64,000 nucleotides of DNA, from positions 614-64,613 of the forward strand of contig MFJU01000028.1 of NCBI GenBank assembly GCA_001779315.1, in the 5' to 3' direction. Source of the stretch: Candidatus Gottesmanbacteria bacterium RIFCSPLOWO2_01_FULL_42_22. Lineage in GTDB: Bacteria; Patescibacteriota; Microgenomatia; 2-02-FULL-39-11. The notes below the pieces were generated by a model. The model was given only the letters and a program-made list of their open reading frames with translations. It had not been told where the DNA came from and made no database searches. Positions 1,955-45,213 of the stretch are shown piece after piece. Made by a program: the position numbers and the translations under genes. Numbering within the stretch: position 1 is the first letter of the stretch; each line of letters begins with the position of its first letter.

Positions 1955-2021
1955 AGTTGCTAGAGATGGTTTTAGAAATTCAAGGTTGTAGTTTTTAGAT
2001 GGTTTATTCTTCTCCTTTTAT

Positions 2022-2989: not shown

Positions 2990-3159
2990 TCCTTATTTTT
3001 AAAAATTTTTGCGTTTTCTTTTGGTTTGCTGACGCGGAGTAGAGCCGACAGTTTTAGGCGAAACCCCGATAGCAATCGGGGCCGACCTGCCCGCCGTAGC
3101 TAGGCGAAGGCGGGGCTAACGCAAGGCGGAAAAGTAAGTTCGAATTTTTTCGAAAATCA

Positions 3160-3256
3160 CTGCACACAGGGAATCCGCGTTTGAACGGGTATGGAGGCTC
3201 TCCGCGGGTGGGGGCGCGCAGAGCATGGCAAAAGGCTGCCGCAGGGAAACGGAGAG
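3160..3256. repeat. left terminal inverted repeat (~97 bp) of the recombinase unit
   Basis: Its reverse complement matches 4716..4813 with 1 mismatch and 1 single-base indel. Imperfect similarity continues inward to about 3280. Confidence 0.85.
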
Positions 3257-3314
3257 ATGGTCGATTTTTGAAAAGAAGCTCAAAAGAAAACGCAAAAATT
3301 TAAGAGAACTGCTT

Positions 3315-7615: not shown

Positions 7616-8499
7616 TAAAATTTCAAATTTTTCTTTCCTCACTGCTAATTTTTTTCTTTTATTTATATTTTGCTCAAAATATTTCCGCCGCTCCCCGCTA
7701 TCCGCTGCGGGAATTGGGCAGCTGCCGTGATGCCAAAGAGTGTTCGTTTTACTGCCAAATACCTAAAAATTATCCATCCTGCTGGTCATTCGGCAAATAT
7801 ATTTTAAACGGCAATGTCCTGGGAGAAACAACCGTCTCTGATGAAACAATAGCCAAAGAAAACAATGTCACGTTCCCGATTGCCGACTTAGGCAACTGCA
7901 ATAGTGTCGCCGAATGCCGCCAGTTTTGCGCTGTCGAAACTAATCGGGCTGCCTGTAAAGAATTCGCCCTCAAGAAAAAACTGCTAAAAGCCAAGGTCAA
8001 AACAATCAAACAGGACCTTTTGAATACCGCCAGAAAGGAACTGGGTTGCGTGAGCGCTGCGGCCTGTTTTGAATTCTGTCTGGATGAGGCCAACCGCGAT
8101 ACCTGCCAGGCTTTCGGAGAAACATATAGCCTGGTCAAAAAAGCAGCTGTAGAAGTCCAAGTAATTTTACCCGAAGTCCTGCAAAAAAGCCGCCTGGAAC
8201 TGGGCTGCAGCAATGAAGCAAGCTGTAAAAACCTCTGCGACCATCCGGATAACCAAAAAAAATGCGCCGCTTTTGCCAAAAAATATACCCTGCGTCAAAA
8301 ACAACCGCTAAAAACTGCCTCTTCTCTAAAGGGCTGCCAAACAGAAGAAGAATGCCGGCAGGAATGCCGCCTGAATCCCGACAAATGTCCGGGTTTCCCT
8401 ATAGAAAGGATTCCTTCTTTTGAAAACCTCTCTACCTCTACCAAAGAAGCAGAACCGACTGAAGCTGAATCGACTAAAGCCGCCAGCAGCGAATTTTAA
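7612..8499 (+). CDS. secreted cysteine-rich repeat protein with five ~35-aa 4-Cys repeats
   Basis: Signal peptide. Five repeats (about nt 7702..8410) of pattern LG-x-C-x3-4-[EA]-C-x2-[FL]-C-x5-8-C-x2-F. Confidence 0.6.
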   Translation: MIKFQIFLSSLLIFFFYLYFAQNISAAPRYPLRELGSCRDAKECSFYCQIPKNYPSCWSFGKYILNGNVLGETTVSDETIAKENNVTFPIADLGNCNSVAECRQFCAVETNRAACKEFALKKKLLKAKVKTIKQDLLNTARKELGCVSAAACFEFCLDEANRDTCQAFGETYSLVKKAAVEVQVILPEVLQKSRLELGCSNEASCKNLCDHPDNQKKCAAFAKKYTLRQKQPLKTASSLKGCQTEEECRQECRLNPDKCPGFPIERIPSFENLSTSTKEAEPTEAESTKAASSEF

Positions 8500-8581
8500 T
8501 ACCCCTCTTCCAAACCCGATTGACAAGGTAAAAAATTTCCCGTAACGTGAAATAAGATAGATAAAAAAAGGCGGTGATCAC

Positions 8582-8701
8582 ATGGCCAAAAGAAAAAATT
8601 CAGAAGATCTATTTAAAAGCCATCCGGAATTAAAATTCCTCTTAGTCGTTTTTTTGGGATTGGTAATAGTCTTCGGAGTAATTATTTTTAAAACAGGTTA
8701 A
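8582..8701 (+). CDS. small membrane peptide (39 aa), putative
   Basis: ATG preceded by a GGCGGTGA SD-like sequence. One TM helix. The stop immediately precedes the next ATG. Below the ORF-track size cutoff. Confidence 0.3.
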   Translation: MAKRKNSEDLFKSHPELKFLLVVFLGLVIVFGVIIFKTG

Positions 8702-9361
8702 ATGGACAGGGATTCCAACTATACCCATTTTGCCATTTTGATACTGCTCTTAGTGATTTCGGTCAATCTGCTAATTATTGACCTGAAAATTTTTTCGCCT
8801 GCAGCCGATTTACGCCTGTCCGAATCAAAGACCGAAGCTGCTCCTGAACAAAACAGAATTGGAATTTTCGATCCCAAACAACAAAACATCAGTTGTCCCA
8901 GCGACTGTCTCTCTTCTATAAAAAGCGCCACCGAAAGCCTGGTATTGCGGACCGGCAATCCTCCCATAACTGCTGAGAACAATTATCAGCCCCAAACTAC
9001 CAAAGAATATTTTATCCCTTTGGGAACCGGCACAACTTCCAAAAACAGCTGGGATAACCTGATTGCCACAGAAACAGTCATCGACACGAGTGTCTACGGC
9101 ACCATCAAAGAAGCTTATTTCATCGCCGGATTGAAAAATCCGACCGGCAACGGACAGGTCGAAGCTCAAATTTATAATGTCACCGACAAAAATCCGGTTT
9201 GGGGCAGTCATGTCATCATGAACGGCCCGACAGAACAAACTATCACTTCCGGAAAAATAGGGCTGGCCAACGGAGGGAAACTTTACCGCGTGCAGCTCAA
9301 AAGCAGTATAGGCTATGAAGTAAATTTGGAAAATGCCAGAATACGAATACTGGCTTACTAA
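8702..9361 (+). CDS. hypothetical secreted/anchored protein
   Basis: N-terminal signal anchor. Followed by palindromic repeat copy 1. Preferred over the antisense ORF 8825..9460. Confidence 0.55.
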   Translation: MDRDSNYTHFAILILLLVISVNLLIIDLKIFSPAADLRLSESKTEAAPEQNRIGIFDPKQQNISCPSDCLSSIKSATESLVLRTGNPPITAENNYQPQTTKEYFIPLGTGTTSKNSWDNLIATETVIDTSVYGTIKEAYFIAGLKNPTGNGQVEAQIYNVTDKNPVWGSHVIMNGPTEQTITSGKIGLANGGKLYRVQLKSSIGYEVNLENARIRILAY

Positions 9362-28254: not shown

Positions 28255-28425
28255 CGACTTTTCTTCCCTAAATAATCCACTTTCCATATCCTGCTTCACG
28301 TCCTTCACATTTTCTACTTTTTATGGTAATATTTATTTTACCTGTATTTAGCAGGGAGGCGATAGCCGATGACCGCAGATCATATTCTTCTGTCAACTCA
28401 TCCCCTATTTGCCTTTATACCAAAA

Positions 28426-28851
28426 ATGCCAGCCAAAAAAGTCAAAACAATCATCAAGCTTAATTTACCGGCAGGCGAAGCGACACCGGCGCCTCCCGTC
28501 GGACCGGCTTTGGGCCAGCACGGACTCTCCATTATGGATTTTGTGCGGGTTTACAATGAAAAAACCGCCGACAAAAAGGGGCAAGTCATTCCGGCTGTCA
28601 TCACCGTCTATACCGACAGAACCTTCTCATTCATCACTAAACTGCCACCGGTTGCCGAAATGATCAAAAAAGCCCTAAACCTTGAGAAAGGCAGCCAGAA
28701 AACCGGACGTGAATTTGCCGGCACTCTTTCCCACGCCCAGGCAGAAACCATCGCCAAAGAAAAAATGGGAGATTTAAACTGCGATACAATTGAAGCGGCT
28801 GTCAAAGTAATTGAAGGCACAGCCCGCAGTATGGGAGTAAAGATTGAATAA
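28426..28851 (+). CDS. rplK: 50S ribosomal protein L11
   Basis: MPAKKVKTIIKLNLPAGEATPAPPVGPALGQHGLSIMDF. The track ORF begins at an upstream non-ATG start. Confidence 0.9.
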   Translation: MPAKKVKTIIKLNLPAGEATPAPPVGPALGQHGLSIMDFVRVYNEKTADKKGQVIPAVITVYTDRTFSFITKLPPVAEMIKKALNLEKGSQKTGREFAGTLSHAQAETIAKEKMGDLNCDTIEAAVKVIEGTARSMGVKIE

Positions 28852-28875
28852 TCCTTCGACAAGCTGAAGATAAAT

Positions 28876-29754
28876 ATGGGAAAAATCAGAGTCTCAACTT
28901 TAGGAAGCAAAGAAGAAAAAGAAAGCCGAGAAAAACGGAAAGTCCAGCGTGAGGAGAAGAAAAAGCGTGCCGGAGCCGCCGGAGAGAAAGTCCATATAGC
29001 CGGACTTAAAGGCGGGCAAAGGGTCAAATCTGTCGGTACATCGGAGGAGGAAATTGATAAAATGGTCGCTTTGGCCCGCGAAGTTGAAAAAGACCAGACA
29101 GAAGGCATAAAACCGGAAACGGAAGAAGGCAAATCCAAGAAGAAAAAAAAGGCTAAAGTCAGGTCCAAAAAATACCAGGCGGCAGTCATGAAACTGGACC
29201 ACCAAAAAAAATATCCGCTCAATGATGCCCTTGAGGTTCTCCGCCAAGTTTCCTACGGCAAATTCAACGGCTCGGTAGAAATCCATATCAACGCTATCGA
29301 AAAAGGTTTAAGAGGTACTGTCAACCTGCCGCACGGCACCGGAAAAGAGATCAGAATTGTCATAGCTGAAGCATCCAATATCGATAAACTAGTCGAGGAA
29401 ATTTCCCAGGGCAAAATCAATTTTGACGCTCTTATCGCCCACCCATCAGCTGTGCCTAAACTGGCCAAAGTGGCCAAATTTTTGGGCCCCAGGGGTTTGA
29501 TGCCGAATCCGAAAGCCGGCACTATTTCCAGCGAACCAAAGAAACAGGCAGAAAAACTGAAAAAGGGAGAGGTCGCCTGGAAAAGCGAAGCGGATTTCCC
29601 CATCATCCACCAGGTAATCGGCAAACTATCCTTTAAGAACGGGCAGCTGGAAGAAAATTACCGGGCTTTCGTCAAATCAGTCGGCATAAATAAAATCAGC
29701 AGTATTACCCTCAAGTCTACCATGAGCCCCGGGATTAAAGTCCAAATTGAATAA
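28876..29754 (+). CDS. rplA: 50S ribosomal protein L1 with an ~85-aa K/E-rich N-terminal extension
   Basis: L1 core from SKKYQAAVMKLDHQKKYPLNDALEVL onward. Confidence 0.85.
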   Translation: MGKIRVSTLGSKEEKESREKRKVQREEKKKRAGAAGEKVHIAGLKGGQRVKSVGTSEEEIDKMVALAREVEKDQTEGIKPETEEGKSKKKKKAKVRSKKYQAAVMKLDHQKKYPLNDALEVLRQVSYGKFNGSVEIHINAIEKGLRGTVNLPHGTGKEIRIVIAEASNIDKLVEEISQGKINFDALIAHPSAVPKLAKVAKFLGPRGLMPNPKAGTISSEPKKQAEKLKKGEVAWKSEADFPIIHQVIGKLSFKNGQLEENYRAFVKSVGINKISSITLKSTMSPGIKVQIE

Positions 29755-29816
29755 ACTCTGCATCGGAAAAACTTTTATCATTGACTTTTTGCTTCGGAAA
29801 CTTCTTAATTAAAGTA

Positions 29817-30584
29817 ATGCCCGTCTCCGCATCCAGCTTCGCCGAGGCAAAGTCCAAACGGTTTTGGCCGGTTATTGTCCTTGTCCTAATCCTTTTTGCC
29901 CCGACAGCTTTCGGGGTAAATGCTGTTGTGTCGGCCCAAACGGCCACACCGGTCAAATCCATCAAATTCGGCAGTTTCACTCCCCCGCCGACCAATACCA
30001 AGACTCCTCTACCCTCACCGACCGCCTATGTTTCCATCCCACCTCTGTCAACTACTCCTGAACCTGACCCCAAAAAAATCTATTTCTTTTCCCAAAGGGA
30101 TCCAAGGTGGAGGACGTATAATCCATATACTGTCGGCCAACTTGGACCGTGCGGCTGCGGAGAAACGTCAACAGCCATGATTTTAACTAGTGTCTTGGAT
30201 AATTCCAGCAATCCTGATCAGGGCTATTATAATCCGCCAAGAATGTGGGATTATTATGAAAATCTCTATCCCGGGCGCTGCGGTACCGGTATAGAATGGC
30301 ATAAAAATACTTTGGAAAGCTTTGCGTTTCGAGCTTCAATAAATGCCTATGACCGGAATAACCCACAGGGAAGCAACAATGTGATAAAAAATTACCTGAA
30401 CAACGGCTATTTAGTGATAATCTACTATAAGCGTCCGGCCACTTACGGCCACTATGTCGTTTTGTCTGATATTATCGGATCAACAATCAAAGTCTATGAT
30501 CCTTACTATTTGCCAGGTGCCTCAATGCCTGTTACCATAGAATCGATAGCGATAATCCAAAGTTTTGTGGCAGCAAAAAAATAG
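29817..30584 (+). CDS. secreted papain-like (C39-like) cysteine peptidase
   Basis: Signal peptide. QLGPCGCGETSTAMIL (Cys) and GHYVVLSD (His). Leader contains IKFGSFTPP. Confidence 0.55.
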   Translation: MPVSASSFAEAKSKRFWPVIVLVLILFAPTAFGVNAVVSAQTATPVKSIKFGSFTPPPTNTKTPLPSPTAYVSIPPLSTTPEPDPKKIYFFSQRDPRWRTYNPYTVGQLGPCGCGETSTAMILTSVLDNSSNPDQGYYNPPRMWDYYENLYPGRCGTGIEWHKNTLESFAFRASINAYDRNNPQGSNNVIKNYLNNGYLVIIYYKRPATYGHYVVLSDIIGSTIKVYDPYYLPGASMPVTIESIAIIQSFVAAKK

Positions 30585-31050
30585 ATTTATGGAAAATATA
30601 AGAATATTCATCATAAATCATAAGAAGCTGATCATTATCCTTTTGATAACGATCATTTTGATTACTATCTTTTTGGTGTCACTGTTTCTTTTTAATACTT
30701 CGTCAGCGCCACCTCCGGAAGTCAAAACCACTCCTTTTCCTTTCCAACCGAATGGTGATTTTCGTCCTTTTGACAAACTAACTAATCTTACTCCTACCAT
30801 GCCTTTTACCGGAGCAGATGATGCGGCAAACGAAAAGTATATGCAAAAGCATCCGGAACTGACCACTGAGGCGGAACTCAAAGCCAAGCTGCCAATTGAG
30901 ACGGATGATTTTACTTTGGATTATTCATACCCAGAAGATAAATTTACCGTCACTTTTAAACAACCTGGAATAGTATCTCAAAAAATATTTGAAGATTGGA
31001 TGGAATCGATGGATCTTGGTGATAAAAACCGCTTCATTTTTCTCAATTGA
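30565..31050 (+). CDS. membrane-anchored hypothetical protein
   Basis: N-terminal TM. Confidence 0.5.
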   Translation: MWQQKNRFMENIRIFIINHKKLIIILLITIILITIFLVSLFLFNTSSAPPPEVKTTPFPFQPNGDFRPFDKLTNLTPTMPFTGADDAANEKYMQKHPELTTEAELKAKLPIETDDFTLDYSYPEDKFTVTFKQPGIVSQKIFEDWMESMDLGDKNRFIFLN

Positions 31051-31082
31051 CAAAAAATCCCAAAATCCGTCAAAATAGGTTA

Positions 31083-31796
31083 ATGCCCAAAAAATTTTGG
31101 CCAGCAATGCTTCTGGTTCTTCTCTTTAATTAGGTTTTTGTCTCCCATATCAGCCTTGCCCAAACCAATGATAAAACTATTAAATTCGGCACATTCACTC
31201 CTCCAGCAACGCGTACTCCCACCAACAGACCGCCTGCTACTCCCACACTTTATGGCCAACCATCAATTACACCTCCCAATGGCAACGGTAACGGAGGAGG
31301 GTCAACTGCCAAAGTAAAGGATTTGGTTTCTGAAATCAGAAGGTATTGCCCAAACGGAATCGTGAAAGTGGAAAACGTCGATTGTGTAGACAGTATCAAT
31401 ATCAATCCCAACAGAAAACCGATGGTCGTGACTTTAATCAAACTTTCAACTCTTTATGCCTGTCCAGGATTCCTGCAATGTGTTGGATTTGTCCAGGCGG
31501 GAACGGCACTTGTCAACGGGTCGCCTCTCTCTATAGATCAACATGCTATTAATTACGCCACCAAGATTCCGGATGGCTATGCTTTCATCGAAAATTTCTC
31601 AGGTGTTAATATAAAAGTAGATGATTTACCTATCTGGGATTATGATACCTATGGGCATATTGCCTATGTTTTAAATGCCTATTCAAATCATGTCTTTCAG
31701 GTAGCTGAAGCCAATGCCCCAAAAGACGGCTATGTCGGCATAAGTTTCAAGACCACCGACAGCCCTAATTTTATCGGATTTTTGAGGAGGCAGTAA
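31083..31796 (+). pseudogene. secreted CHAP-domain amidase/peptidase with an in-frame TAG at codon 17 (31131..31133)
   Basis: CHAP motifs CPGFLQCVGFVQAG and GHIAYVL. The leader parallels the C39-like gene (KKFWP...SLAQT...IKFGTFTPP) but carries TAG inside the signal peptide. Could also be a base-call error or suppressed stop. Confidence 0.5.
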
Positions 31797-32509
31797 TGAA
31801 AAAATATTAAAAATTCATCATAATTTTTACGGTAATTTTAGGCCTGGCCGCCCTGTTTTTATTCAAAAGAAATTCTGCCATACCGAATAGAGAGAACAGG
31901 GTGACTGATAAATCCCCTAACAACCAAAATAATCAGGATGCAATTTTTGAGGAAAATCTGCCTCCTGAAATCATATCAGTCTCGCCCGAGGATAATGAGT
32001 TGAACGTCTCACTCAATTCTGTCATCACCATCACCTTTAATAGGAATTTCCGGCCGAATGAAATTGCTTTTTCCATGGCCCCGCAGACAGAAAGCAAAGT
32101 GGAAGTAACTGATAATATCCTGACTGTCACTCCCCTTAACTTGCAGGCAGGAATGAAATATACCTATATTATTAAATACGCTGTCCGTGCCAACCCCAGC
32201 CGGACGTATTCATTTACGACAGAGGGTCCCCTGCAGGAATTTCCGGACACGCGCGATGAGGAAGCGGTTAAACGGGAAAATGAATTCCAACTTGCGAATC
32301 ATCCTGATGTCTTTCTGGCCAATCAGACGCCGTATTCTTCCCCATCTTTCGAGGTAACGGCGGAATTTGACGATACGCTCTCGAATCCCCATTTTATCTT
32401 TACAGTTTTTCTCAAAACTAAGATGGGCCGGGCTGATTTCAACACTTGGGCATTCTCTTTGGGACTGACTGAAGAAAAACTAAATCAGCTGTCTATCGAT
32501 TACCGCTAA
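31796..32509 (+). pseudogene. secreted Ig-like-domain protein with an in-frame TAA at codon 5 (31808..31810)
   Basis: Strong SD GAGGAGG, then ATG at 31796 reading MKKY-TAA-KFIIIFTVILGLAALFLF (signal anchor). Body PPEIISVSPEDNELNVSLNSVITITFN is Ig-like. The track ORF starts at GTG 31901. Confidence 0.45.
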
Positions 32510-32526
32510 AATCAGATCGTTTTTCC

Positions 32527-32913
32527 TTAGACTTTTTTCTTTTTTCCTAAATTGAGGGCGGCCAAGATAATCGAAGCAAACAACAAACCCCAACCTATAA
32601 GATAAAAAATTACCGGAAGAACATCTGAAATAAGCAGGTTTAACAATCTTTGCAGCCGGAAGTGAGGAGTAATTGTGATCAGAGAATTGAGGGTCTGTTC
32701 CCTGAAGGCGGCAATGAGATGTTTATCGTATTCGAATGAAAAAAGCAGTATGGCAAAAGCTAAAAAAATCATGGTGGCAAACCTGGAGGGGCGGTAGAGT
32801 GAAAGAATTATGCCTATAATCAATCCGGTCAGATAGGCAAAAGCGATATAGTTATGGATAAATAGAAGATAGAGTGCCACAATAATATTCTGCCTCAAAT
32901 CCGCTGCCAGCAT
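32527..32913 (-). CDS. polytopic membrane protein
   Basis: 4 TM helices. Confidence 0.5.
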   Translation of the reverse strand: MLAADLRQNIIVALYLLFIHNYIAFAYLTGLIIGIILSLYRPSRFATMIFLAFAILLFSFEYDKHLIAAFREQTLNSLITITPHFRLQRLLNLLISDVLPVIFYLIGWGLLFASIILAALNLGKKKKV

Positions 32914-33034
32914 AAGACTACTATTTTAACAGTTTGGTGTGCCACTTGCCACATTTTGCTATATCTGGTAAGATTTATAAATCCTAAAGACAGCGGGTTC
33001 CCGACTTGGTCGAGGATTAAACCAAAAGCCTGCC

Positions 33035-33086
33035 GAGGGAGACAAAATACGTATTTGTATCGTCCCCTCCTTTAGAGGGGATTTTT
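33035..33086 (+). promoter_or_regulatory. rplJ leader: two alternative hairpins immediately upstream of the start codon
   Basis: GAGGGAGACAAAATAC/GTATTTGTATCGTCCCCTC and CCCCTCC-TTTAGA-GGGG then ATTTTT before ATG. Resembles an L10-leader-type attenuator. Confidence 0.4.
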
Positions 33087-33629
33087 ATGAGAAAAGCTAA
33101 ACCTAATCAAAAAAAAGAAGATACAGTCAAAGATTTAAACGGAAAATTCACCAGGGCAAAGGCTTTTTTCCTGACCGACTATAAAGGCCTGACACATAAA
33201 GAGCTCGAGGATCTCCGGCGCAGGCTGAAAAAAGTTGAGGCGGAATACGTGGTTGCCAAAAATACCCTCATTAAAATCGCGCTGGAGCAAACTGGCAAGC
33301 AAACCTCCGGACAGCTCAAGGACCACCTCAAGGAATCAACGGCTACCATGTTTGCCTATGGCGATGAGATGGCGGCTGTCAAAGCATTATCTGATTTTGC
33401 CAAAAATTTGACGCTTCCCAAAATTAAGGCTGGGCTTTTTTCCGGCAATATCGCTTCGGAAGCTGATTTTCAAAGGCTGGCAACGCTTCCCTCCCGTGAT
33501 ATCCTCTTAGCTACGCTTTTGAACGGGCTTAATGCCCCAATACAGAAATTTCACTATGCTCTTTCCTGGAATCTGGTAAAATTTGTGACTGTTTTAGATA
33601 ACATTAAAAGCAAAAAACCAAGTAATTAA
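33087..33629 (+). CDS. rplJ: 50S ribosomal protein L10
   Basis: Conserved N-terminal region (KAFFLTDYKGLTHKELEDLRRRL). Confidence 0.85.
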   Translation: MRKAKPNQKKEDTVKDLNGKFTRAKAFFLTDYKGLTHKELEDLRRRLKKVEAEYVVAKNTLIKIALEQTGKQTSGQLKDHLKESTATMFAYGDEMAAVKALSDFAKNLTLPKIKAGLFSGNIASEADFQRLATLPSRDILLATLLNGLNAPIQKFHYALSWNLVKFVTVLDNIKSKKPSN

Positions 33630-33763
33630 ATTCAAAATCCAAATAACAAATAACAAATCAAATCCAAATAACAAATAACAAATTTTTTGAGTTTTGAATT
33701 TTGAGCTTGATTTGAATTTTGAATTTTGTCATTTGAATTTCTAACGAAGGGTGGTGATAATAG

Positions 33764-34153
33764 ATGGCAAAACTAACTAAGGATGATATTTTAAAAGCAG
33801 TAGAAGATATGTCAGTCATGGAATTGGCTGATCTGGTCAAGGCTCTGGAAGAGAAATTCGGCGTTTCAGCTGCACCGACAGCTGTGGCCGCACCAACCGG
33901 AGGCGCTCCCGCCGCAGGCGGTGAAGCCGCTCCTGAACAGACTACTTTCAATGTAGTTCTGGCAAACGCCGGCGGCAATAAAATTGCTGTCATTAAGGCA
34001 GTCAGGGAATTGGTGCCGACACTCGGTCTGACAGAAGCTAAAGCATTGGTCGAATCAGCTCCCAAGGACGTTTTAACCGGCGTCAACAAGAAAACAGCTG
34101 AAGAAGCCAAAACCAAACTGACAACCGCAGGTGCTACAGTCGAACTAAAATAA
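33764..34153 (+). CDS. rplL: 50S ribosomal protein L7/L12
   Basis: [34 protein letters not shown]...ATVELK. Confidence 0.9.
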
Positions 34154-35886: not shown

Positions 35887-36909
35887 TTAGTTATTTTTTT
35901 TAGAGAGAGGTATTTTATCCACAGTTTGTCGAATCTGGTCATGACTTCCATCAAAGTTATATAAATCAGACCAGGTTTCGATCCTGATAATTCCTGAAAG
36001 CGACTTACGACTTACATCTACTTGGAAAGACAGTTCAAAATTATTCCCAAAAGAAATATTGTAGTTGTCTATCACAAATGTATTTGTTTCATCATAATAA
36101 ATTTGGCCCCAACCAGCTTGATTGGAACTGAAGGATGATGTTTTCTGCATTCCCGATGGTAAAATGATTTTCATAAAAGGATCAATGGCGACATTCATTT
36201 CTGAATTTGGAATTACTTTAATGGTGATAATAAAAGTTTTACTTCCATTTACTCCTCCCGGATCGAGATCGACAGACACCGAAGATTGCGGTGTGATCAT
36301 GAGGGGATTCGTGTCAAGTATATCCGTTTTAGCTTTGGCTTTCGCTTCGGCTTTATTAAGCAGATCAAGATCATCGGGAGAGTCTGTGAGTGAAAGATCA
36401 TCAGTCAGGGATAAATTAAAGGGAAGCAGATTTAATTTATCGATGATATCTTTAAGATAATATGGAGGGGTCCAATTTTTCTCTTTAGGTTTTTCTTCAC
36501 CCAACATATCCCAGTCGATATTGCCGGACGGATCTGTAAATCTTAGCGGATTATTCCGTACATATGCATATCTATTTGTTCCGTCACTGGCAGTATCTGC
36601 CTGGGTGAATTTGCCGATTGTAGGATTGTAGTAGCGGGCATTGTAGTAGTAGAGGCCGGTTTCATCAGTATCGGAGACCTGGCCGGTATATTGTCTCTTT
36701 GTAGTCAAGTTGCTGTCGGCTGACCTGGTTTCACCAAAGGGATAATAGACCTGTTTTGAGGCTTTCTTGCCTGTACTGTCAGTCGTCAGCACGGTTGAAC
36801 CCAGATGGTCCTGGTGGACAAAATAGAGGATTTCTGCGGCAAATATGGAGCCTGGCAAAAGCAGACAGAGCAAAAGAAGAAATAATATCAGGTAGATTCT
36901 CAATTTCAT
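35887..36909 (-). CDS. RHS core + C-terminal domain cassette 2: signal peptide, RHS repeat-associated core, unknown 200-aa C-terminal domain
   Basis: Core LYFVHQDHLGSTVLTTD...YYYNARYYNPTIGKFTQADTASDGTNRYAYVRNNP is almost identical to cassette 1. The tail is unrelated. Confidence 0.7.
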   Translation of the reverse strand: MKLRIYLILFLLLLCLLLPGSIFAAEILYFVHQDHLGSTVLTTDSTGKKASKQVYYPFGETRSADSNLTTKRQYTGQVSDTDETGLYYYNARYYNPTIGKFTQADTASDGTNRYAYVRNNPLRFTDPSGNIDWDMLGEEKPKEKNWTPPYYLKDIIDKLNLLPFNLSLTDDLSLTDSPDDLDLLNKAEAKAKAKTDILDTNPLMITPQSSVSVDLDPGGVNGSKTFIITIKVIPNSEMNVAIDPFMKIILPSGMQKTSSFSSNQAGWGQIYYDETNTFVIDNYNISFGNNFELSFQVDVSRKSLSGIIRIETWSDLYNFDGSHDQIRQTVDKIPLSKKNN

Positions 36910-37279: not shown

Positions 37280-38473
37280 TTAATTCGGATGGAAAGGAGT
37301 CCGTTTCTTCTTTGTAAAATCATAAGCTTCAAAAGATGATGCATTTGGATATTTTTCTTCTAAATATAAATCAAGAAAATCGACTCTTAAACCTGGATCT
37401 TTTACATAAATAGTCGAATCTGATGTTAAAATAGATACTTTATGACGTATTTCATCTCCTGTTGGCTTAAATTTTCCTGTTTTAAAAGACAAGTCTGTTG
37501 CATCAAGTCCTTGATATCTTGCGGCATCAGTAAGTAGCGCAGCTCGATGCCTACATATCCCGCCACAACCAGTATTCCATAAATTTGTAAAACCATTTTC
37601 TGCATCCATCATCTCATCAGCAAGACTTGCTGACTGAGAATTATAAGGAACACTTTTATTTATGATATCACCCAGCTCATCAAACTTTGAAACTGGGGTA
37701 TCCATTTCCGTAGTTTGCATAGCCAAGTATTGGAATAACTCTTCATCGCTACTAAACTGGGGTGTAGCTGTAGCTAACACATCATCAATTTGTGTTGATG
37801 CAGCAGTTCCAGGTAAAGGATTGATACACTCAGGACCTCCACCGCTAGCTAAACAAAGACCGGTGTCTGCTATTTCTAATAGTGGTCCCAGAGGAGGAAA
37901 TATCGGAATCAACATTGCCAGGTAAATACTCGTGATCGCTGCTACATCCGACAAAGATGCATCAGCTCCTGGGCCTATTGGCGGTACTCTTCCTCCTCCA
38001 CGGTGAGCTCCGGGTTTTGTTTCATCAGGTGGCGGAGGTGGTAGTTCGTCTTTTCCCGGAAATGCGCTTTGGTGTCCTGAAGGATCAACTAAAGCAATTG
38101 GATTATTTCTGACATATGCATATCTATTTGTTCCGTCACTGGCAGTATCTGCCTGGGTGAATTTACCGATTGTAGGATTGTAGTAGCGGGCATTGTAGTA
38201 GTAGAGGCCGGTTTCGTCCGTATCGGAGACTTGGCCGGTATATTGTCTCTTGGTCGTCTGATGGCCGACCGGTAATGATTGTTTTCTGGTTTCTCCAAAC
38301 GGGAAATAGACTTGTTTGGAAGCATTCTTGCCGGTTGTGTCAGTGGTAAGTAATGTACTACCCAGATGGTCCTGATGGATATAATATAGAGTTTCGGCGG
38401 ACAAGACTGAAGCAGGGGCAAACAGTGAAAATAAAGTAAGTAATATTAAAGCGACGATTTTTTTAGCTACCAC
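37280..38473 (-). CDS. RHS core + C-terminal domain cassette 1: signal peptide, RHS core, poly-Pro linker, unknown 260-aa C-terminal domain
   Basis: LYYIHQDHLGSTLLTTD...RYYNPTIGKF core. The tail has Cys/His/Asp candidates (GCGGICRHRA, IRHKVS, KDPGLRVD). Starts 3 nt after the RHS stop. Confidence 0.7.
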   Translation of the reverse strand: MVAKKIVALILLTLFSLFAPASVLSAETLYYIHQDHLGSTLLTTDTTGKNASKQVYFPFGETRKQSLPVGHQTTKRQYTGQVSDTDETGLYYYNARYYNPTIGKFTQADTASDGTNRYAYVRNNPIALVDPSGHQSAFPGKDELPPPPPDETKPGAHRGGGRVPPIGPGADASLSDVAAITSIYLAMLIPIFPPLGPLLEIADTGLCLASGGGPECINPLPGTAASTQIDDVLATATPQFSSDEELFQYLAMQTTEMDTPVSKFDELGDIINKSVPYNSQSASLADEMMDAENGFTNLWNTGCGGICRHRAALLTDAARYQGLDATDLSFKTGKFKPTGDEIRHKVSILTSDSTIYVKDPGLRVDFLDLYLEEKYPNASSFEAYDFTKKKRTPFHPN

Positions 38474-38475
38474 TC

Positions 38476-41400
38476 TTATTTAAAATCTAAAATAGTAAAG
38501 TTTATTTCCCCCGGGGAAAGTTTTAAGTTAACCACCGGCGTAAATGATCCAAACTTTAACTGGGGAATCGCAGTCGGTGTTAAAACAGCCGGATTTACAG
38601 TCGGAGTTGGAATAGTTTCCGGCAGCGGTTGATTTGCCGGTTTTAGGAAAAATATTTTGGCGATAAAATCCAAAATCAAGTCCACTAAACTAAGTTCCGG
38701 TTGATTTTGAGTTCCCAAGACTGTTTGCTGGTTGGCAGAACCCTTGATTTCCACAAAAATCCGATAATTTCCGGGCTCTTGGGGCACGGTATAATCCCAG
38801 GAACTTTGATATCGACCGGGTGTATCAGCTAATTCTTGAGCCGGAATCGGATCAGATATTTGTATTTCTTGTCTGTCTCTTTCTACATGAAAGATCATGC
38901 TATCAACTTTAATGTTCGGCTTAAGTGTTTTGGCAAAGGCAGTCAAAGTGACTTTATATCCGGCAAAAAAATTACCGGAATAGGTAAGACCATCGTTATT
39001 ATAGGATGTTGACAGATTTTCCCTGACGGCCGCTAATTTTCCGGCAAAGAAGTAATTTTGCCGCCAGCCGACTTGCGTATCGGGGTTGATGACGACTTCC
39101 AGCTCCGGATTAATATAATAAGTGCTATCGGCCCCGGTAATAATTTTGGCGATTCTAGCGCCCGTGGCATCATAGTAAAATTTGCTTTCTTTAAAACGAG
39201 AATCAACAGGAGAAACTTTTATAAGCCGGTTGTCCTTATCGTAAGTGTATAACCGCTCTGAATCCGAGGCGAGATTACCTACTTTGTCATAAGAATAGGT
39301 GTTAGTTTTTGAAGCGTCAGTTACCGTTAGCGGACGATGATAGAAAGAGCCGTTATAATCACTGTAGGCAAGAGTAGTTGTTGAGGAACCTTCGGTTTTA
39401 CTTAAAATGTTGTTAAGATCATCATAAGAGTAGTTGGCAGTATAGGCACCGGCCACATCCTTTAAACGGCTTAAGGCATCATAAGTAAAATTTTGGGTAA
39501 GGTAAAAAGGACTGGCAGCAGGAACCATGGGGTTATCGTCATTGATTTTTCTAATATTACCAAGCGGATCATATAGATAAGAGATCTTAATTTCATCTTT
39601 ATCAGCAAGAGCAGTCCCTATCACTTTCAATGTAGTCAGTCTGCTGTTGGTTGGATTATAGGTGAATAAGTTATTAACACCGTTACCGGAGGAAAATCTA
39701 ATTAATTGGCCGTCTTTGTTATAGCGGGCATTGGTGACATAATTGTTTGTTCCGGCAAGTTTCGTCAAATAAGGACGATTATAGGTATAAGTGATGGTTT
39801 CTGCAGGAATTGATAAACTGGTACTGCCTGATCGGGTTTGCGTTTTTACTCTTCCGCCCAAATCATAAGTAAAAGAGGTGCTGAAATTTTGGTTATTGAT
39901 GGCAGTATTGGGTAAATTTGACAAAGTCAAAGTACTGCTTGTCACCCTACCGCGGTGGTCATATTGGGATTTGACAGTTTGCAGCAAAGATCCGCTGCTT
40001 AAATCATATGAGCGCACTTGGCAGGATTTGCCAACTCCGTTGGTACAGCTATCGTAAATGTTTTCCAGAAGTAAAGTGGAATTTACTGATTTGCTTAAAA
40101 GTCTGTTAAGGGAATCATAAGAAAGAGTAGAGACATCACCCCGGGGATTGGTTTGAGTTTTGAGATTGCCGATTTTATCATATTCATAACGCCAGGAATT
40201 TACATCTCCGCTCATACTTGGACTCATATCGGCATCCCACATCCTGGTCTTTCTGCCCAAAGTATCGAATTCAACTATATTAATTACATTAGTTAATGTG
40301 TCTTTAGTTGTGGTTACAGAACCTAAAATCGGATGATATTCAAAACTGGTGGAATAAGTTTTACTGTCAGCAATTTCTTTAACTTCGAGAGTTTGTCCAA
40401 AAGCATCTTTGGTTGTCTGGTTGAAAGTACAAAGTGTTGCTGGATCAGTATCGGTACAGTTTTTATTGGAAGATTTAGTTAGCAGCGGATTTCCGCCCAC
40501 ATCATACTCGGTCGTCTCACTTGTTCCGTCAGGATAATTGACCGTAGTTGCCCTGCCCATTCCATCATAGGTGTATTTTACCTTTTGGATATTGGCACTA
40601 CCGGCGAAATCTCGGGTATCGAATGAGTTTTGTGTGCTTGGAATATAAGGATTTGCCGTGTAGTTAAGGCTCTGGTATTCCGGCTGACCCAAAGCATTAA
40701 ATGATTGGGATTTGATGATATCTCTGAAGGCATCGGCCACCGGTAGACCGGCATTTGAATACTCGTTTTCATACCAGAGTTGTCGAGTCTGAACAGTCTG
40801 GCCCAAGCCGTTATAATATGTGTGGGTTGCCGAGACTTTGCCGGCAGCACCGTTATCGGCAAAGCGGGAGGCGCTGTAAACCATCATTTTTGGACCTTTA
40901 CCATTCAATTGCTTACCTAGTCCTATCAAACAGTGATTAGCATCGTTACACGGTGCGATATCATCTCCGTTGAAATAATAATATTTGTTGAAAGAATCGG
41001 CTTTGGTACTGCTGGCAGGGTTCTTGCCCGGCAGGTAGGTCTCGGTAGCTCTTCCAAAAACATCATAAACACTATTGCTGACCTTGCCATTGGCATCTGT
41101 GACCCGAACAGGTATGCCCAAAACACCGCCATAATTGGGATGGGTGGAATCGGCGATATTAAAATCATAGACTGTCGTGGTTGACTGCCCCAAATTGTTG
41201 GTAACTTTTAGCGGATACAGATGAAAAACATTGTCATAAGTGGTGGTGCTGGATCGTCCCAAGGGGTCGGTGATTTTTGTCACTAACCAGGGGTAAGTCG
41301 CGTCGTAAGCGGAAGTCGTATCAGCATAAGCAGATCCGTTAATTAAGACGCTGGTTTTAGTCGGCAGGCCGTAGCTATTGTAAGTTATTTGGCTGTGATT

Positions 41401-43995
41401 GTACTTGGTTCCTGTTGGAGAACTAGCAGTCCAGCTTTCTTTGGGCCGAGGCAGAATCCATTTGAGAGTGTCGGCGTCTGTATAGTCGGTGTAGGATACT
41501 TTTTTGATATCAGAAGTATCATCCTGGTTGGGATCACTACAGCTCACCTTACCGTAATTAGTGGCCGTATGCAGCTGGGCATAAACATCATCAGTGCCAT
41601 CAATTTTTCTATGATCAGTGAATGTTTTAGTACAAAGAACTGCATTGTCTCCGACGAATTCTTTACTGACGTTATCTCTGGGAATAACCAAAGAAATGGA
41701 TGTTTCCGGATCGTAAGTGGCACATTTGTCATTTAAATTCCAGTCATAATAGCCTTCCCAGGGACCAAACATCGGACCGAAACGGATGGTAGAGCTGGAG
41801 GATGTTTCAGTTCTGCGGCCAGGTTTTTGCACATCGAAATTTATCGTTTTATAAGCAATTCCTTTCAAGGGACTGGGTTTGAAGCAAGTGGCAGTATCGA
41901 GTGCCTGGTAGTAAAATGATTTGGATTTAGCAACGACCTTATCGGTTGAATTTTTTTCATAGACAGTTGTTTCGACCTCGGGGTAACCCAAAAATTCAAA
42001 ACCGGAGAAGCTGTTGAAAATTTCCGCTCCCTCATCTGTTTCGCTATAATTTTTGACAGCTCCAAGACCCAAAGTAGCTCCGTTTCCGCTATAGTCATAG
42101 TTGGTCCGGACGCTATTTCCCATGCCATCCTCAACTATTTGGCTACTTATTCTGTGCCTTTGGGTGTTGAATTCATTGTCGGTCTTGCAGGTTTCTCCGT
42201 TTAGAGCTACTTTATCCGTGTCGCAGTATTTGATATTGAGAGCATTATTATTGGTGGCATCTTTCCAATACTCAAAAGTGACTTTTCCGCCATAGCCGTT
42301 TTCGGCTGTTTGCAAAAAGAAATCAGAGGGGGTTTTTACCTGATCAAGCAAATTCCTACCCCAAACAAATGAGGATAGAGGGCAGCCGCCCTTAAATTCT
42401 GCACAATCAGTACCGTAAGAAAAGGTATAGTTTGGCAGGCGTTTGGCGTGGGGATTTACATCAGGATCGTCACTGTAGACTTTAATAATCCTCAAAAGAG
42501 AATGAATAACCTGACCGTCTTTTACCTCCGCATCGTTTTCGGCTTTCCCGTCGCCATCGTCTAAGTGTTTTGCCGGAACCCAGCCGTATGAGTAATCCAA
42601 AACGTAAACCTTTCTTACCTTACCCAGAGTTTTGACAATTATTTTCTTCAGCCTTTCCAAATTACGGAGAGGTCTTTTGGGACTTGGGTTATCACCCTGG
42701 TGGATTTTATAGTCAAGTCTAGCCTCTCTCTGGAAAGAAATCTCGTTTTTTCCATAAGTAATAGATGACGGATAAACGGCTGAGACGTATCTATCGCCAT
42801 GCCCAGCATCTTCGATTTTCAGATTATAGCTATAGTTGATTTCAACAGGAACAGTAAAGATACTTTCAACTTTCGAGAGATACCATCTGTAGGTAAGGGA
42901 ATGATAACCGAGGGTATTGTTGCCCCAAATCAACCAGGCGTTGGGGCCAACGGGGCTTGAGTCATTGTCATATAAGGGATACCAGTCGTATTCTTTATTT
43001 TCCAGATCCTCATTGGTATCCGGGTCGTATGTTTTTTGCCAGGCTGTGGTGGTCGTTGGAGTGCCGAAATAATGCTTTGTACCATCTCCGGTTGTTACCA
43101 GCCAGTGATATCTGCAAAAATAGGTACCATCGTCGGCAGCATCTCTTTTGCATCTTGACCATCTTTCCACTTTCACTTTCAAATTTGGCACTGTCCTCCA
43201 GACACTATACTTTCCGTAATCAGTTCCTGCTTCACTTTCTTTTGATAAATTAGCACTACCGCCTGAAAAGGCTAAAATAAAGGCGTCATCACTCTGACCG
43301 GTTAGGGCACGCATGGATGAGCCTTTGGTATCCCGGGCGATATATTGTACTCCACCCAAATTCCAACCCAAACCAACCATGCCAGACTGATTCTGGTAGG
43401 GATGGTCAGTCCAACCCCGATAGCTGGTAAGAGTACCTAAGTTGAGATCATCAACACTTGAGGAGGAATAAGAAAGATCAAGTGAGGGAGTAAGGCCAGC
43501 AGGACCGGGCGGCAGATCAATAGGGTAGGAGACAGTAGCAGCTCCATTGAAGGCGTCGCTGCCAAAAGCTCTGCTGGATGGTAATTGCATGTTAGAAGTG
43601 CCTGCCTCATCAGAAGCAGCTGCCAGCGGATCGAAATCGCTTGTCACTCCTTTGACTCTCGGATTCTCTTTTTCAATCTCTTTGAGGAGCAAAACATAGT
43701 CCGGTCCATCAATTACATCATCGCTATTATAATCGTAGAACAGATCCTGGGTTTTGAGTGCCTTAAAATAGCCGGGAACGGATGGTTTAATAAGCCCAAA
43801 TTTTTTCAAAGAACGGCGGAAAGCCAGAGTGTTCTTTGCCGGAAAAATATTCTTTTTAATGATCAAAAAAGCACCAAGAGATATCAATGATAAAATTAAA
43901 ATCGTCAGGAAAATTACCTTGAGTTTGGGAGACCAAGTTTTATGAATGTCAGGCACGTTTAACTTAACCGTATTACAGAAAAGGATAACCGTCAA
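38476..43995 (-). CDS. RHS/YD-repeat family protein (1839 aa) with an N-terminal TM anchor and a T/P-rich tail ending LKFGSFTPVV
   Basis: Dozens of YD-type repeats (YDxxGRL, TYDxxGN, YxYDxxG). No core domain inside this ORF. Confidence 0.8.
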   Translation of the reverse strand: MTVILFCNTVKLNVPDIHKTWSPKLKVIFLTILILSLISLGAFLIIKKNIFPAKNTLAFRRSLKKFGLIKPSVPGYFKALKTQDLFYDYNSDDVIDGPDYVLLLKEIEKENPRVKGVTSDFDPLAAASDEAGTSNMQLPSSRAFGSDAFNGAATVSYPIDLPPGPAGLTPSLDLSYSSSSVDDLNLGTLTSYRGWTDHPYQNQSGMVGLGWNLGGVQYIARDTKGSSMRALTGQSDDAFILAFSGGSANLSKESEAGTDYGKYSVWRTVPNLKVKVERWSRCKRDAADDGTYFCRYHWLVTTGDGTKHYFGTPTTTTAWQKTYDPDTNEDLENKEYDWYPLYDNDSSPVGPNAWLIWGNNTLGYHSLTYRWYLSKVESIFTVPVEINYSYNLKIEDAGHGDRYVSAVYPSSITYGKNEISFQREARLDYKIHQGDNPSPKRPLRNLERLKKIIVKTLGKVRKVYVLDYSYGWVPAKHLDDGDGKAENDAEVKDGQVIHSLLRIIKVYSDDPDVNPHAKRLPNYTFSYGTDCAEFKGGCPLSSFVWGRNLLDQVKTPSDFFLQTAENGYGGKVTFEYWKDATNNNALNIKYCDTDKVALNGETCKTDNEFNTQRHRISSQIVEDGMGNSVRTNYDYSGNGATLGLGAVKNYSETDEGAEIFNSFSGFEFLGYPEVETTVYEKNSTDKVVAKSKSFYYQALDTATCFKPSPLKGIAYKTINFDVQKPGRRTETSSSSTIRFGPMFGPWEGYYDWNLNDKCATYDPETSISLVIPRDNVSKEFVGDNAVLCTKTFTDHRKIDGTDDVYAQLHTATNYGKVSCSDPNQDDTSDIKKVSYTDYTDADTLKWILPRPKESWTASSPTGTKYNHSQITYNSYGLPTKTSVLINGSAYADTTSAYDATYPWLVTKITDPLGRSSTTTYDNVFHLYPLKVTNNLGQSTTTVYDFNIADSTHPNYGGVLGIPVRVTDANGKVSNSVYDVFGRATETYLPGKNPASSTKADSFNKYYYFNGDDIAPCNDANHCLIGLGKQLNGKGPKMMVYSASRFADNGAAGKVSATHTYYNGLGQTVQTRQLWYENEYSNAGLPVADAFRDIIKSQSFNALGQPEYQSLNYTANPYIPSTQNSFDTRDFAGSANIQKVKYTYDGMGRATTVNYPDGTSETTEYDVGGNPLLTKSSNKNCTDTDPATLCTFNQTTKDAFGQTLEVKEIADSKTYSTSFEYHPILGSVTTTKDTLTNVINIVEFDTLGRKTRMWDADMSPSMSGDVNSWRYEYDKIGNLKTQTNPRGDVSTLSYDSLNRLLSKSVNSTLLLENIYDSCTNGVGKSCQVRSYDLSSGSLLQTVKSQYDHRGRVTSSTLTLSNLPNTAINNQNFSTSFTYDLGGRVKTQTRSGSTSLSIPAETITYTYNRPYLTKLAGTNNYVTNARYNKDGQLIRFSSGNGVNNLFTYNPTNSRLTTLKVIGTALADKDEIKISYLYDPLGNIRKINDDNPMVPAASPFYLTQNFTYDALSRLKDVAGAYTANYSYDDLNNILSKTEGSSTTTLAYSDYNGSFYHRPLTVTDASKTNTYSYDKVGNLASDSERLYTYDKDNRLIKVSPVDSRFKESKFYYDATGARIAKIITGADSTYYINPELEVVINPDTQVGWRQNYFFAGKLAAVRENLSTSYNNDGLTYSGNFFAGYKVTLTAFAKTLKPNIKVDSMIFHVERDRQEIQISDPIPAQELADTPGRYQSSWDYTVPQEPGNYRIFVEIKGSANQQTVLGTQNQPELSLVDLILDFIAKIFFLKPANQPLPETIPTPTVNPAVLTPTAIPQLKFGSFTPVVNLKLSPGEINFTILDFK

Positions 43996-44160: not shown

Positions 44161-45213
44161 ATGAATGATACGCAAGTTAATTCCCGACAAATAAAAATAT
44201 TACAATATCTCTGGACAAAGCCGACTACAACGCGCAAAGACATCGAGTCCGTTTTTCCTCAAGGATCAGTTTCCAGAATTACCCTGATTCGGGACCTTAA
44301 TAACCTCATCGAAAAGGGAATGATTCAACAATCCGGAGGTGGGAAATATATCAAATATTCACTTGTTCCGGACAAAGAAATCTTAGTACCTATAAATATA
44401 AATGAATATTTTCAGAGTCCGATTGATACTCGTTATGTCCGATACCCGTCATTCAATAATGGAGTCATCATTAAGCTTAACAACCTGTTTTCAAGCGATG
44501 AACTCCGTATATTTGAGCAGGGAAGAAAGCAGTTGCAAAGTCGCTTTGAAACTGTCGATCCGTCAATCATCAAACGGGAACTTGAACGGTTTACTATTGA
44601 ATTCTCCTGGAAATCATCACGTATTGAAGGAAACACCTATTCTCTATTAGAAACTGAGGAACTGATTAAAAACAAAAAAGAGGCACAAGGACACTCAAAA
44701 GAAGAAGCAATTATGATTCTCAATCATAAATCTTCTTTTGATACGATACTGGCCAACAAATCAACATTCCGGCAAATCAGCGAATATGATATCCGGTCGA
44801 TTCATAAAGAACTTGTCAAGGAACTCGATATTACCCCAAACATCAGGGAATATGGAGTTGGTATTACCGGCACGATATATAAACCGTTAGATACAAAATG
44901 GCAGATTGAGGAATCGCTTCATGCTGTTGTGGACCACGTCAAATCTGTCACAGATGTTGCGGAAAAATCTCTCATACTGCTGGCGATGATCTCCTATCTC
45001 CAACCTTTTGTCGATGGAAATAAACGCACCGCCCGGATGGTAAGTAATGCAATACTATTGGCAAACGGATATTATCCCCTTTCATATAGGAGCGTTGATG
45101 AAGTTGAATTTAAGAAGGCTTTGATTCTTTTCTACGAACAGAATAATCTTTTCCATTTGAAACGGATATTTTTGGACCAGCTGCAATTTGCAATTCAACA
45201 ATACTTCGTCTAA
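44161..45213 (+). CDS. Fic/Doc-family protein with an N-terminal winged HTH and a degenerate motif (QPFVDGNKRTAR)
   Basis: The canonical HPFx[DE]GNGRxxR has H replaced by Q and G by K (motif at 44998..45036). Confidence 0.6.
   Translation: MNDTQVNSRQIKILQYLWTKPTTTRKDIESVFPQGSVSRITLIRDLNNLIEKGMIQQSGGGKYIKYSLVPDKEILVPININEYFQSPIDTRYVRYPSFNNGVIIKLNNLFSSDELRIFEQGRKQLQSRFETVDPSIIKRELERFTIEFSWKSSRIEGNTYSLLETEELIKNKKEAQGHSKEEAIMILNHKSSFDTILANKSTFRQISEYDIRSIHKELVKELDITPNIREYGVGITGTIYKPLDTKWQIEESLHAVVDHVKSVTDVAEKSLILLAMISYLQPFVDGNKRTARMVSNAILLANGYYPLSYRSVDEVEFKKALILFYEQNNLFHLKRIFLDQLQFAIQQYFV

Follow-up and report, generated by a model that had tools for sequence, protein, structure and literature searches.

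We have analyzed a short peptide motif, KFG[ST]FTP, that recurs in a stretch of 64,000 nucleotides of DNA (the window) from Candidatus Gottesmanbacteria bacterium RIFCSPLOWO2_01_FULL_42_22 (contig MFJU01000028.1, positions 614 to 64,613 of the forward strand). The motif lies in the N-terminal leaders of two genes, one encoding a C39-like peptidase and the other a CHAP-domain wall hydrolase, and close to the C-terminus of a large RHS-repeat protein. Sequence comparison indicates that the RHS copy is part of a C-terminal domain (the module) that is previously uncatalogued and that ends dozens of unrelated exported proteins of Gottesmanbacteria. We propose, with a probability that we would put at about 0.4, that the motif is a linear docking or recognition peptide, common to leaders and module, for retention of proteins at the cell surface. 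Bacteria of the Candidate Phyla Radiation (CPR, or Patescibacteria) are thought to live attached to other cells, and the way in which they display enzymes and toxins at their surface is little understood.

The C-terminal form of the motif was studied by starting from the end of the RHS protein. The initial annotation had placed a motif-bearing tail on this open reading frame (ORF) (38476-43995, minus strand), and the protein indeed ends ...PQLKFGSFTPVVNLKLSPGEINFTILDFK. Its last 248 residues were used as a phmmer query against a database of 1.84e9 representative proteins. This gave 78 matches, about half of which cover the RHS-repeat part alone; in roughly 35 to 40 proteins it is the extreme C-terminus that aligns, with query residues 70-245. 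The passengers that carry the module are mutually unrelated (RHS, Hint/intein-like, CarboxypepD_reg-like and Cys-rich repeats), and many are without a family match. By a simple heuristic, 23 of the 25 full-length module proteins have an N-terminal hydrophobic signal or anchor. Every named member comes from Gottesmanbacteria or from an unclassified Microgenomates bacterium, and one of them (A3J20_04940) from the window's own genome; the description of the motif as CPR-specific was thus too broad. No Pfam model, and at E<=0.01-0.1 no NCBIfam model, was found over the module in the RHS tail and 10 module proteins, a sequence search of the PDB with the module profile returned no relative, and the literature on Gottesmanbacteria sorting signals, and on Rhs and CPR sortase or surface proteins, yielded nothing on either motif or module.

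The module occupies the C-terminal 150-200 amino acids, and its organization is seen in an alignment of the family (A4). It begins with C-x-C-[DE], followed by a β-rich domain with the pattern ...YHVE.DG.EIA.S.PI.A...RY...W.YT.P....YRIW..I.C..K. This leads via VLG into an amphipathic helix that is usually present (e.g. SLLDSLLNFLSRVFLL) and a linker rich in Pro and Thr (P/T linker), and then into the motif element P-[ST]-G-x-x-[ST]-L-[KQ]-L-G-T-F-x-P. The module is completed by 5-17 variable residues, sometimes including SPTPTP, and the ending G-C-K-E-I-x-F-x-I. Using a loose regular expression, [ST]L[KQ]LGTF.P is found 23-34 residues before the C-terminus in 32 of 35 tails, and the remaining three carry the close variants LKLQAF, LQLQPL and PQLGTF. 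Most modules also have a pre-motif [VIL]-[LI]-x-P-[ST]-G (LAPTG, LRPTG or IAPSG, for example at L019:4657-5130), in which the proline is at least 90% conserved (alignments A4 and A5).

The RHS C-terminal module itself (38479..39003, minus strand) scores 184 bits with the hidden Markov model (HMM) of the module and aligns to A4 over its full length, lacking the four conserved cysteines of the family. It comprises an Ig-like β-sandwich, an amphipathic helix (LSLVDLILDFIAKIFFL), a P/T linker, the sequence QLKFGSFTP and a terminal β-hairpin (VVNLKLS/EINFTI). The third copy of the motif, KFGSFTP (38536..38556, minus strand), is the RHS version of the [ST]L[KQ]LGTF.P element. Sandwich, motif, terminal hairpin, extreme C-terminal location and N-terminal membrane anchor are all present in the RHS protein.

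What is the likely structure of the module, and where does the motif lie within it? Two models were calculated with AlphaFold2, one of the RHS tail (185 aa, mean predicted local distance difference test score (pLDDT) 83) and one of a compact member from locus L019 (158 aa, mean pLDDT 86). They agree in predicting an Ig-like sandwich of seven strands (pLDDT 93-98) that is completed as the two final strands of the protein return to it (pLDDT 93-97). Confidence is low for helix and linker in both. The motif is the best-conserved segment of the tail, yet it is not assigned as a strand by DSSP and lies in blocks with pLDDT 62-79. Foldseek comparison with the PDB identified only generic Ig-like and E-set folds (RhoGDI, NPC2, the Wzt carbohydrate-binding domain and CARDB), with TM scores of 0.3-0.5.

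We also examined how the three copies of the motif in the window are related. Translation of the window in six frames gives exactly three occurrences of KFG[ST]FTP, at 29964-29984 (+), 31182-31202 (+) and 38536-38556 (-). From composition 0.0006 occurrences are expected, and 300 triplet shuffles gave one match in total. In the peptidases the motif is extended to IKFGSFTPP (29961..29987, plus strand) in the C39-like leader and to IKFGTFTPP (31179..31205, plus strand) in the CHAP leader. The parallel architecture that had been described for these leaders is borne out by the sequence, each having a basic N-terminus, a hydrophobic stretch, AQT, the motif and a T/P linker. The claim that each gene encodes the motif with different codons holds for the RHS copy, where the codons aag ttt gga tca ttt acg ccg differ from those of the peptidases at all seven third positions; it fails for the two peptidase copies, which have common codons (aaa ttc ggc a.. 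ttc act cc.). The 5′ module of the C39-like gene, together with some 60 nt preceding the gene, can be aligned at the DNA level with the corresponding part of the CHAP gene of a related genome, from which we conclude that the peptidase leaders are paralogous and have been exchanged between genes as DNA. A DNA repeat would account for these two leaders, but as a full explanation it is ruled out by the codons of the RHS copy. That the motif is conserved at the level of protein is upheld, since it is kept in orthologues.

Searches yielded twelve further leaders, including those of the CHAP orthologues P0003-P0008 and P0010-P0012, that of the C39-like orthologue P0002 (motif IKLGSFTPPPT), and the same leader in P0013, whose C-terminal region is unrelated. 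The leader consequently occurs with three types of cargo, counting the C-terminus of P0013 beside the CHAP and C39-like domains. When the 13 leaders are aligned, their signal peptides and linkers are seen to diverge, and the most conserved stretch between signal peptide and enzyme is K[ST]IK[FL]G.FTPP.T.TPT. Within this there is no variation at K50, P56, T61 and T63, and conservation is 90% or more at I49, F54 and P57; the fifth residue of the motif is free to be S, T, Y, I or N. The conserved peptide lies about 8-10 residues past the predicted signal-peptidase site, and is followed by the P/T linker. All 13 leaders have the motif after a hydrophobic segment and an AQT-type signal-peptidase-I site with no conserved Glu, and in none of the 13 was the type IV pilin-like (class III) signature G|F-x-x-x-E found.

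The distribution of the N-terminal form is narrow. When 185,579 species, each represented by one genome, were scanned at the DNA level with a degenerate pattern for IKFG[ST]FTPP, six matches were obtained. Two are Gottesmanbacteria CHAP orthologues, and the other four are chance occurrences in ORFs of 25-40 codons in unrelated bacteria. Scanning metagenomes for IKFGxFTPPP gave four matches, of which three are the known C39 and CHAP genes and one is an unrelated FtsH homologue with a P-rich C-terminal tail, IIKFGRFTPPPPAPK (L024 642-670). This last was judged to be a chance occurrence, and is the sole in-gene match outside the lineage. A leader-only profile (A2) found nothing in a database of 5.8 billion proteins, its own training sequences included, which is a limit of the method with short and biased queries. 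The sequences indicate that the N-terminal form of the motif is genuine and under selection, and that it is confined to one small leader family of the lineage, spread by recombination. This form is not a proteome-wide signal. Nor was the motif found at random positions in cytoplasmic proteins, the observation that had been named as counting against a signal; outside the lineage there are just the four tiny non-coding ORFs and the FtsH tail.

Are the motifs of leader and module related to each other? An HMM of the motif was built from 31 modules, with the window sequence left out, and used to search 3341 six-frame ORFs from all the fetched loci. It placed 11 of the 13 leaders directly under the true modules, with scores of 8.5-15 bits. 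The best background ORF reached 5.6 bits, apart from one decoy that had been selected by the DNA pattern itself. The leaders of P0010 and P0011 fell below the range of the other 11, and P0011 had been at background level in an earlier run. Comparison of the leader profile (A6) with the module profile (A4) using hhalign gave a single local alignment (P=4.2e-4, probability 34%), pairing 'qt.tp.KTIKFGsFTPP' with 'Pt...sLkLgTF.P'. We regard a short relationship between leader and module as suggested by these sequences.

How then might the motif function? It is limited to proteins with N-terminal signal peptides or membrane anchors, and is always beside P/T linkers and near a protein terminus. The recurrence of a terminal module on unrelated exported proteins is the behavior expected of a sorting, anchoring or docking element. 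The wall hydrolases are exported by the Sec pathway, and past the signal-peptidase site carry K[ST]-I-K-[FL]-G-x-F-T-P-P and then the Pro/Thr linker. Under the reading that we favor, the motif would act as a short linear recognition or docking peptide on a flexible P/T linker at the terminus of the protein, and a single extracellular partner would recognize it in both contexts. In this way the hydrolases and the module proteins, the RHS shell included, would be retained or positioned on the cell surface. We infer functional equivalence of the leader and module contexts. A linear motif is preferred to a core strand of the domain because of its high conservation, low structural confidence, variable spacing from the hairpin and reuse on several cargos. 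The spacing between motif and hairpin varies, and in some modules, as in the leaders, a stretch of Pro and Thr (SPTPTP) comes directly after the motif.

A number of observations weigh against this proposal. The likeness of leader and module extends over only about 17 columns, and the leaders, being homologous to one another, amount to about one independent observation. The N-terminal form is also uncommon, the two real matches of the species scan and the three of the metagenome scan all being CHAP or C39, and the CHAP copy of the motif in the window sits behind a TAG codon. The motif is degenerate in P0010 (PKFGIFFPP) and P0011 (IKFQILPIP), the most distant CHAPs, both of which have kept CHAP and Big_5; it is therefore not indispensable. 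The low pLDDT of the motif in the models may reflect uncertainty of modelling instead of flexibility. In locus L019 the neighborhood of two further module proteins contains no sortase-like enzyme and no recurrent partner gene. That context is uninformative, and neither there nor in the window did we find a partner, a sorting enzyme or a co-located gene that is conserved. The sorting, attachment or docking signal put forward in the initial annotation agrees with an element that is restricted to exported proteins, terminal and recurrent as a module, but no receptor, sorting enzyme or attachment chemistry was found to go with it.

The explanation that competes best with a docking peptide, although we think it somewhat unlikely, is that two unrelated sequences happen to look alike. 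The module motif would then be the lead-in to the terminal β-hairpin of an Ig-like domain that anchors or binds as a whole, the leader motif would be just the start of the mature protein (linker or propeptide), and their resemblance would reflect convergence of a hydrophobic-alternating strand sequence beside P/T linkers. The low hhalign probability over its 17 columns is as expected on this basis, as are the modest E-values of the leaders with the motif HMM (0.003-0.4), the mere 6.6-8.1 bits that the RHS copy attains against the other modules, and the confinement of the N-terminal form to one leader family. Yet the leaders are cleanly separated in rank from the 3341 background ORFs. An extended pattern, [ST]-[IL]-[KQ]-[LF]-G-[ST]-F-x-P followed by a P/T stretch, is common to both forms, with SPTPTP in some modules, and both are terminal and embedded in linkers on exported proteins of a single lineage.

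We consider it quite improbable that the motif is instead a processing signal, i.e., a site for an envelope protease that removes a propeptide or tail, or the starting point for a glycosyltransferase in O-glycosylation of the Thr/Pro linker. The motif always abuts T/P-rich stretches close to a terminus, and in the module P-[ST]-G lies about 6 residues upstream, faintly resembling LPXTG-type sites. However, the two strands that follow the motif are integral to the predicted sandwich, so that cleavage would break the domain. There is no transmembrane segment, hydrophobic stretch or basic tail after it, unlike sortase-type signals, and no candidate enzyme was found nearby. Still less probable is a role for the motif as donor or edge strand with an Ig-like domain as acceptor, in cis in the modules and in trans for CHAP docking onto the co-translated, membrane-anchored Big_5 protein to tether the enzyme: every genome examined has CHAP and Big_5 next to each other with overlapping start and stop codons, the motif has the hydrophobic alternation of a β-strand (L/I-x-L/F-G-x-F) and the module has an Ig-like domain of its own, but the motif is not a strand in either AlphaFold model, the C39-like and P0013 cargos are without their own Big_5 partner, and the motif decays in P0010 and P0011 while Big_5 persists.

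If the docking peptide is the right reading, it could be extended to a docking system peculiar to Gottesmanbacteria, in which a tag of about 10 residues plugs hydrolases, RHS and other exported proteins onto a common surface receptor. We think such a system unlikely. If real, with the tag N-terminal on the hydrolases and C-terminal, inside the Ig-like module, on the others, it would assemble a surface arsenal used against or on a host cell. Independently, the module can be defined as an uncatalogued domain family that marks exported Gottesmanbacteria proteins, and its HMM is usable for annotation; the peptide common to module and peptidoglycan hydrolase leaders is a concrete candidate for a surface-targeting tag. 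Should the tag have a receptor, the surface-display machinery of the lineage would be identified, and if it has none the module still marks the secretome.

The two peptidase genes lie in a gap of about 3.3 kb between rplKA and rplJL, in agreement with the earlier statement that rplA and rplJ are here separated. The cluster is flanked on the 5′ side by rplK and rplA (28369-29754), where rplA, encoding ribosomal protein L1 (28876..29754, plus strand; Pfam Ribosomal_L1, E=2.2e-27), forms the upstream boundary. On the 3′ side are rplJ and rplL (33087-34153), with rplJ, encoding L10 (33087..33629, plus strand; Pfam Ribosomal_L10, E=2.3e-26), as the downstream boundary. In between are the genes for the exported C39-like (papain-fold) peptidase (29817..30584, plus strand), a 153-aa protein with an N-terminal membrane anchor (30589..31050, plus strand), the CHAP-domain hydrolase (31083..31796, plus strand), a membrane-anchored Big_5 (Ig-like) protein (31796..32509, plus strand) and a 128-aa polytopic membrane protein (32527..32913, minus strand). 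The 153-aa protein gave no family match in scans with Pfam and NCBIfam, and a domain shared between it and the C-terminal half of the Big_5 protein was rejected (BLASTP E=11). Neither an L10 leader nor any further RNA was detected in the cluster with Rfam at its gathering threshold.

The locus is present in at least seven independent assemblies, and the arrangement is not the one-off insertion that had been supposed, as the order CHAP, Big_5, 128-aa membrane protein recurs downstream of rplKA in related genomes. The CHAP-Big_5 pair is kept in L001, L016, L017, L018, L025 and L026. Start and stop codons of the two genes overlap wherever both were seen, as TAATG in the window. The 128-aa protein was traced by tblastn beside Big_5 in L016, L017, L018 and L023, with 67-69% identity, and in related genomes is usually on the strand opposite to CHAP and Big_5. 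The cargo of the slot between rplA and CHAP differs among genomes, and may be an M64/NHL protein, LytR_cpsA_psr, GIY-YIG or nothing; in L001 it is a 704-aa protein with Peptidase_M64 and NHL repeats (1656-3770) and in L017 a LytR_cpsA_psr protein (7842-8999), both without the motif. From the comparison of these loci, the region is best described as an envelope cluster conserved within the Gottesmanbacteria lineage, with a core of CHAP hydrolase, translationally coupled Big_5 protein and small polytopic membrane protein and with variable extra cargo, the cargo here being the C39-like peptidase.

The C39-like protein consists of a signal peptide, ...AQTATPVKSIKFGSFTPPPT, a P/T linker and a catalytic domain, and is identical to P0001, a hypothetical protein of Candidatus Gottesmanbacteria bacterium RIFCSPLOWO2_02_FULL_42. 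Its assignment as a C39-type peptidase is consistent but weak, with a match to Peptidase_C39_2 (PF13529) that scores 18.4 bits where the cutoff is 24 (E=0.0034) and spans positions 11-143 of the 143-position profile. Candidates for the catalytic Cys (GPCGCGETS) and His (GHYVV) are seen in the sequence. Relative to the otherwise near-identical 5′ module of the CHAP gene in L001, the C39-like gene has a 33-nt insertion (window 29823-29855, encoding VSASSFAEAKS) that separates the KRFWP of the signal peptide from the initial MP. The CHAP domain (PF05257) of the window copy is similarly weak and consistent (23.6 bits against a cutoff of 26). Orthologues P0003-P0011 have precomputed PF05257 hits, and the NCBIfam scan gave a weak PcsB-like match to the core. 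PDB sequence searches with the C39-like and CHAP proteins gave nothing significant.

Two genes of the cluster, those for the CHAP amidase and for the Ig-like protein (Big_5, 39.8 bits, E=8e-10), each contain an in-frame stop codon. In CHAP, codon 17 (31131-31133), midway along the signal peptide, is TAG, and the next in-frame start (31323) is past both leader and motif. In Big_5 it is a TAA at codon 5 (31808-31810), where the orthologue has Leu (MKKY*KF compared with MKKYLKF). Each is identical in seven of seven assemblies, and both are fixed in the sampled population. Both lie in hydrophobic N-terminal segments of adjacent genes, and it is for Big_5 that the residue replaced has been established as Leu. 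The ORFs are otherwise intact, and intact orthologues of CHAP exist (P0003-P0012). The stops could mark recent pseudogenes, sites of read-through or internal restarts. Reassignment of TAG or TAA as a sense codon is unlikely, the remaining ORFs of the window reading normally with table 11. Frame breaks are also observed in some assemblies of the same or related organisms, at L004 18663-20766 (RHS tail), at L005 9169-9462 (rplA) and in Big_5 at L009 3029-3449 and L022 10434-10854; they could be assembly errors or real strain variation.

The RHS system of the window is unusual in being split, with a shell that ends in the module and with core and toxin tips that are separate signal-peptide proteins. 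The shell is an RHS/YD-repeat protein of 1839 aa (38476..43995, minus strand) with matches to RHS_repeat (PF05593, E=3.5e-17), SpvB and YD_repeat (TIGR01643). It has an N-terminal membrane anchor, but is without RHS core and toxin, and has the C-terminal module at its end instead. Three nucleotides past its stop codon, and in another frame, begins an ORF (37280..38473, minus strand) with a signal-peptide-like N-terminus, followed by the RHS-associated core (LYYIHQDHLGS...DPSG; TIGR03696, E=3.8e-22) and a toxin-like C-terminal region. A second, orphan ORF of the same type (35887..36909, minus strand; TIGR03696, E=2.7e-22) has a signal-peptide-like segment and RHS core with a different C-terminal region. 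In canonical Rhs/YD toxins (the TcB-TcC cocoon) repeats and TIGR03696 core are on a single polypeptide. The system of the window is like these in its YD/RHS repeats, SpvB-like N-terminus, TIGR03696 core, variable tips and downstream orphan tip, but differs in that the shell stops before the core and ends in an Ig-like module, and that core and toxin are encoded by separate ORFs with their own signal-peptide-like N-termini. A Fic/DOC family protein with a winged-helix-like N-terminal region is encoded directly upstream of the RHS gene, on the opposite strand (44161-45213).

Elsewhere in the window there is a gene for a large serine recombinase (3225-4892, plus strand) with Resolvase, Recombinase and Zn_ribbon_recom domains. 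Its 3′ end overlaps a tRNA gene on the opposite strand (4811-4881, minus strand), and an integrated element may have its edge here. The gene at 15021-17621 encodes a protein of 866 aa, in which an M23 peptidase domain is N-terminal and several transmembrane segments are present. The GC content there is 52-54%, compared with about 42% for the remaining window, and this DNA may be foreign.

By analogy, motif and module would work most like terminal sorting or docking elements, while falling outside every described family that we tested. The cysteine-peptidase hydrolases themselves resemble secreted CHAP, NlpC-P60 and C39-like enzymes such as PcsB, with signal peptide, linker and C-terminal cysteine peptidase domain, but have a single short motif and P/T linker and not a coiled-coil, LysM, SH3b or choline-binding repeats. 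The substrates of sortase (LPXTG) and of exosortase or archaeosortase (PEP-CTERM and PGF-CTERM) are similar in having short C-terminal motifs on exported proteins, often with P/T linkers and restricted to particular lineages. Those signals are tripartite, with motif, hydrophobic transmembrane helix and basic tail. The tails studied here end ...GCKEI.F.I or ...EINFTILDFK, lacking a hydrophobic stretch or Arg/Lys tail, and form an amphipathic β-hairpin of a folded domain; the motif here is moreover also N-terminal. In NCBIfam no match to the C-terminal domain (CTD) of the type IX secretion system (T9SS), to PEP-CTERM or to other curated CTERM models was found on the RHS tail or the 10 module proteins. 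The module is like the T9SS CTD of Bacteroidota (Por CTD, TIGR04183) in being an Ig-like β-sandwich that ends many unrelated signal-peptide proteins. The T9SS CTD is a common handle for export or surface attachment. The T9SS belongs to the diderm Bacteroidota and not to CPR, we know of no PorU-like sortase in this lineage, and the present module adds an internal amphipathic helix, a P/T linker and the conserved linear motif. Lastly, P/T-linked enzymes, a small terminal docking element, a β-sandwich partner and a tag on varied cargos are also features of cohesin-dockerin and the other modular docking systems of Gram-positive bacteria (SLH, CWB2 and GW). No Pfam match to cohesin, dockerin, SLH or CWB2 was found in the window proteins or the 10 module proteins, and in place of the folded 70-aa dockerin the present proteins would have a peptide tag about 10 residues long. 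If the docking system exists, it would be a functional CPR counterpart of cohesin-dockerin or T9SS CTD sorting, built from unrelated parts.

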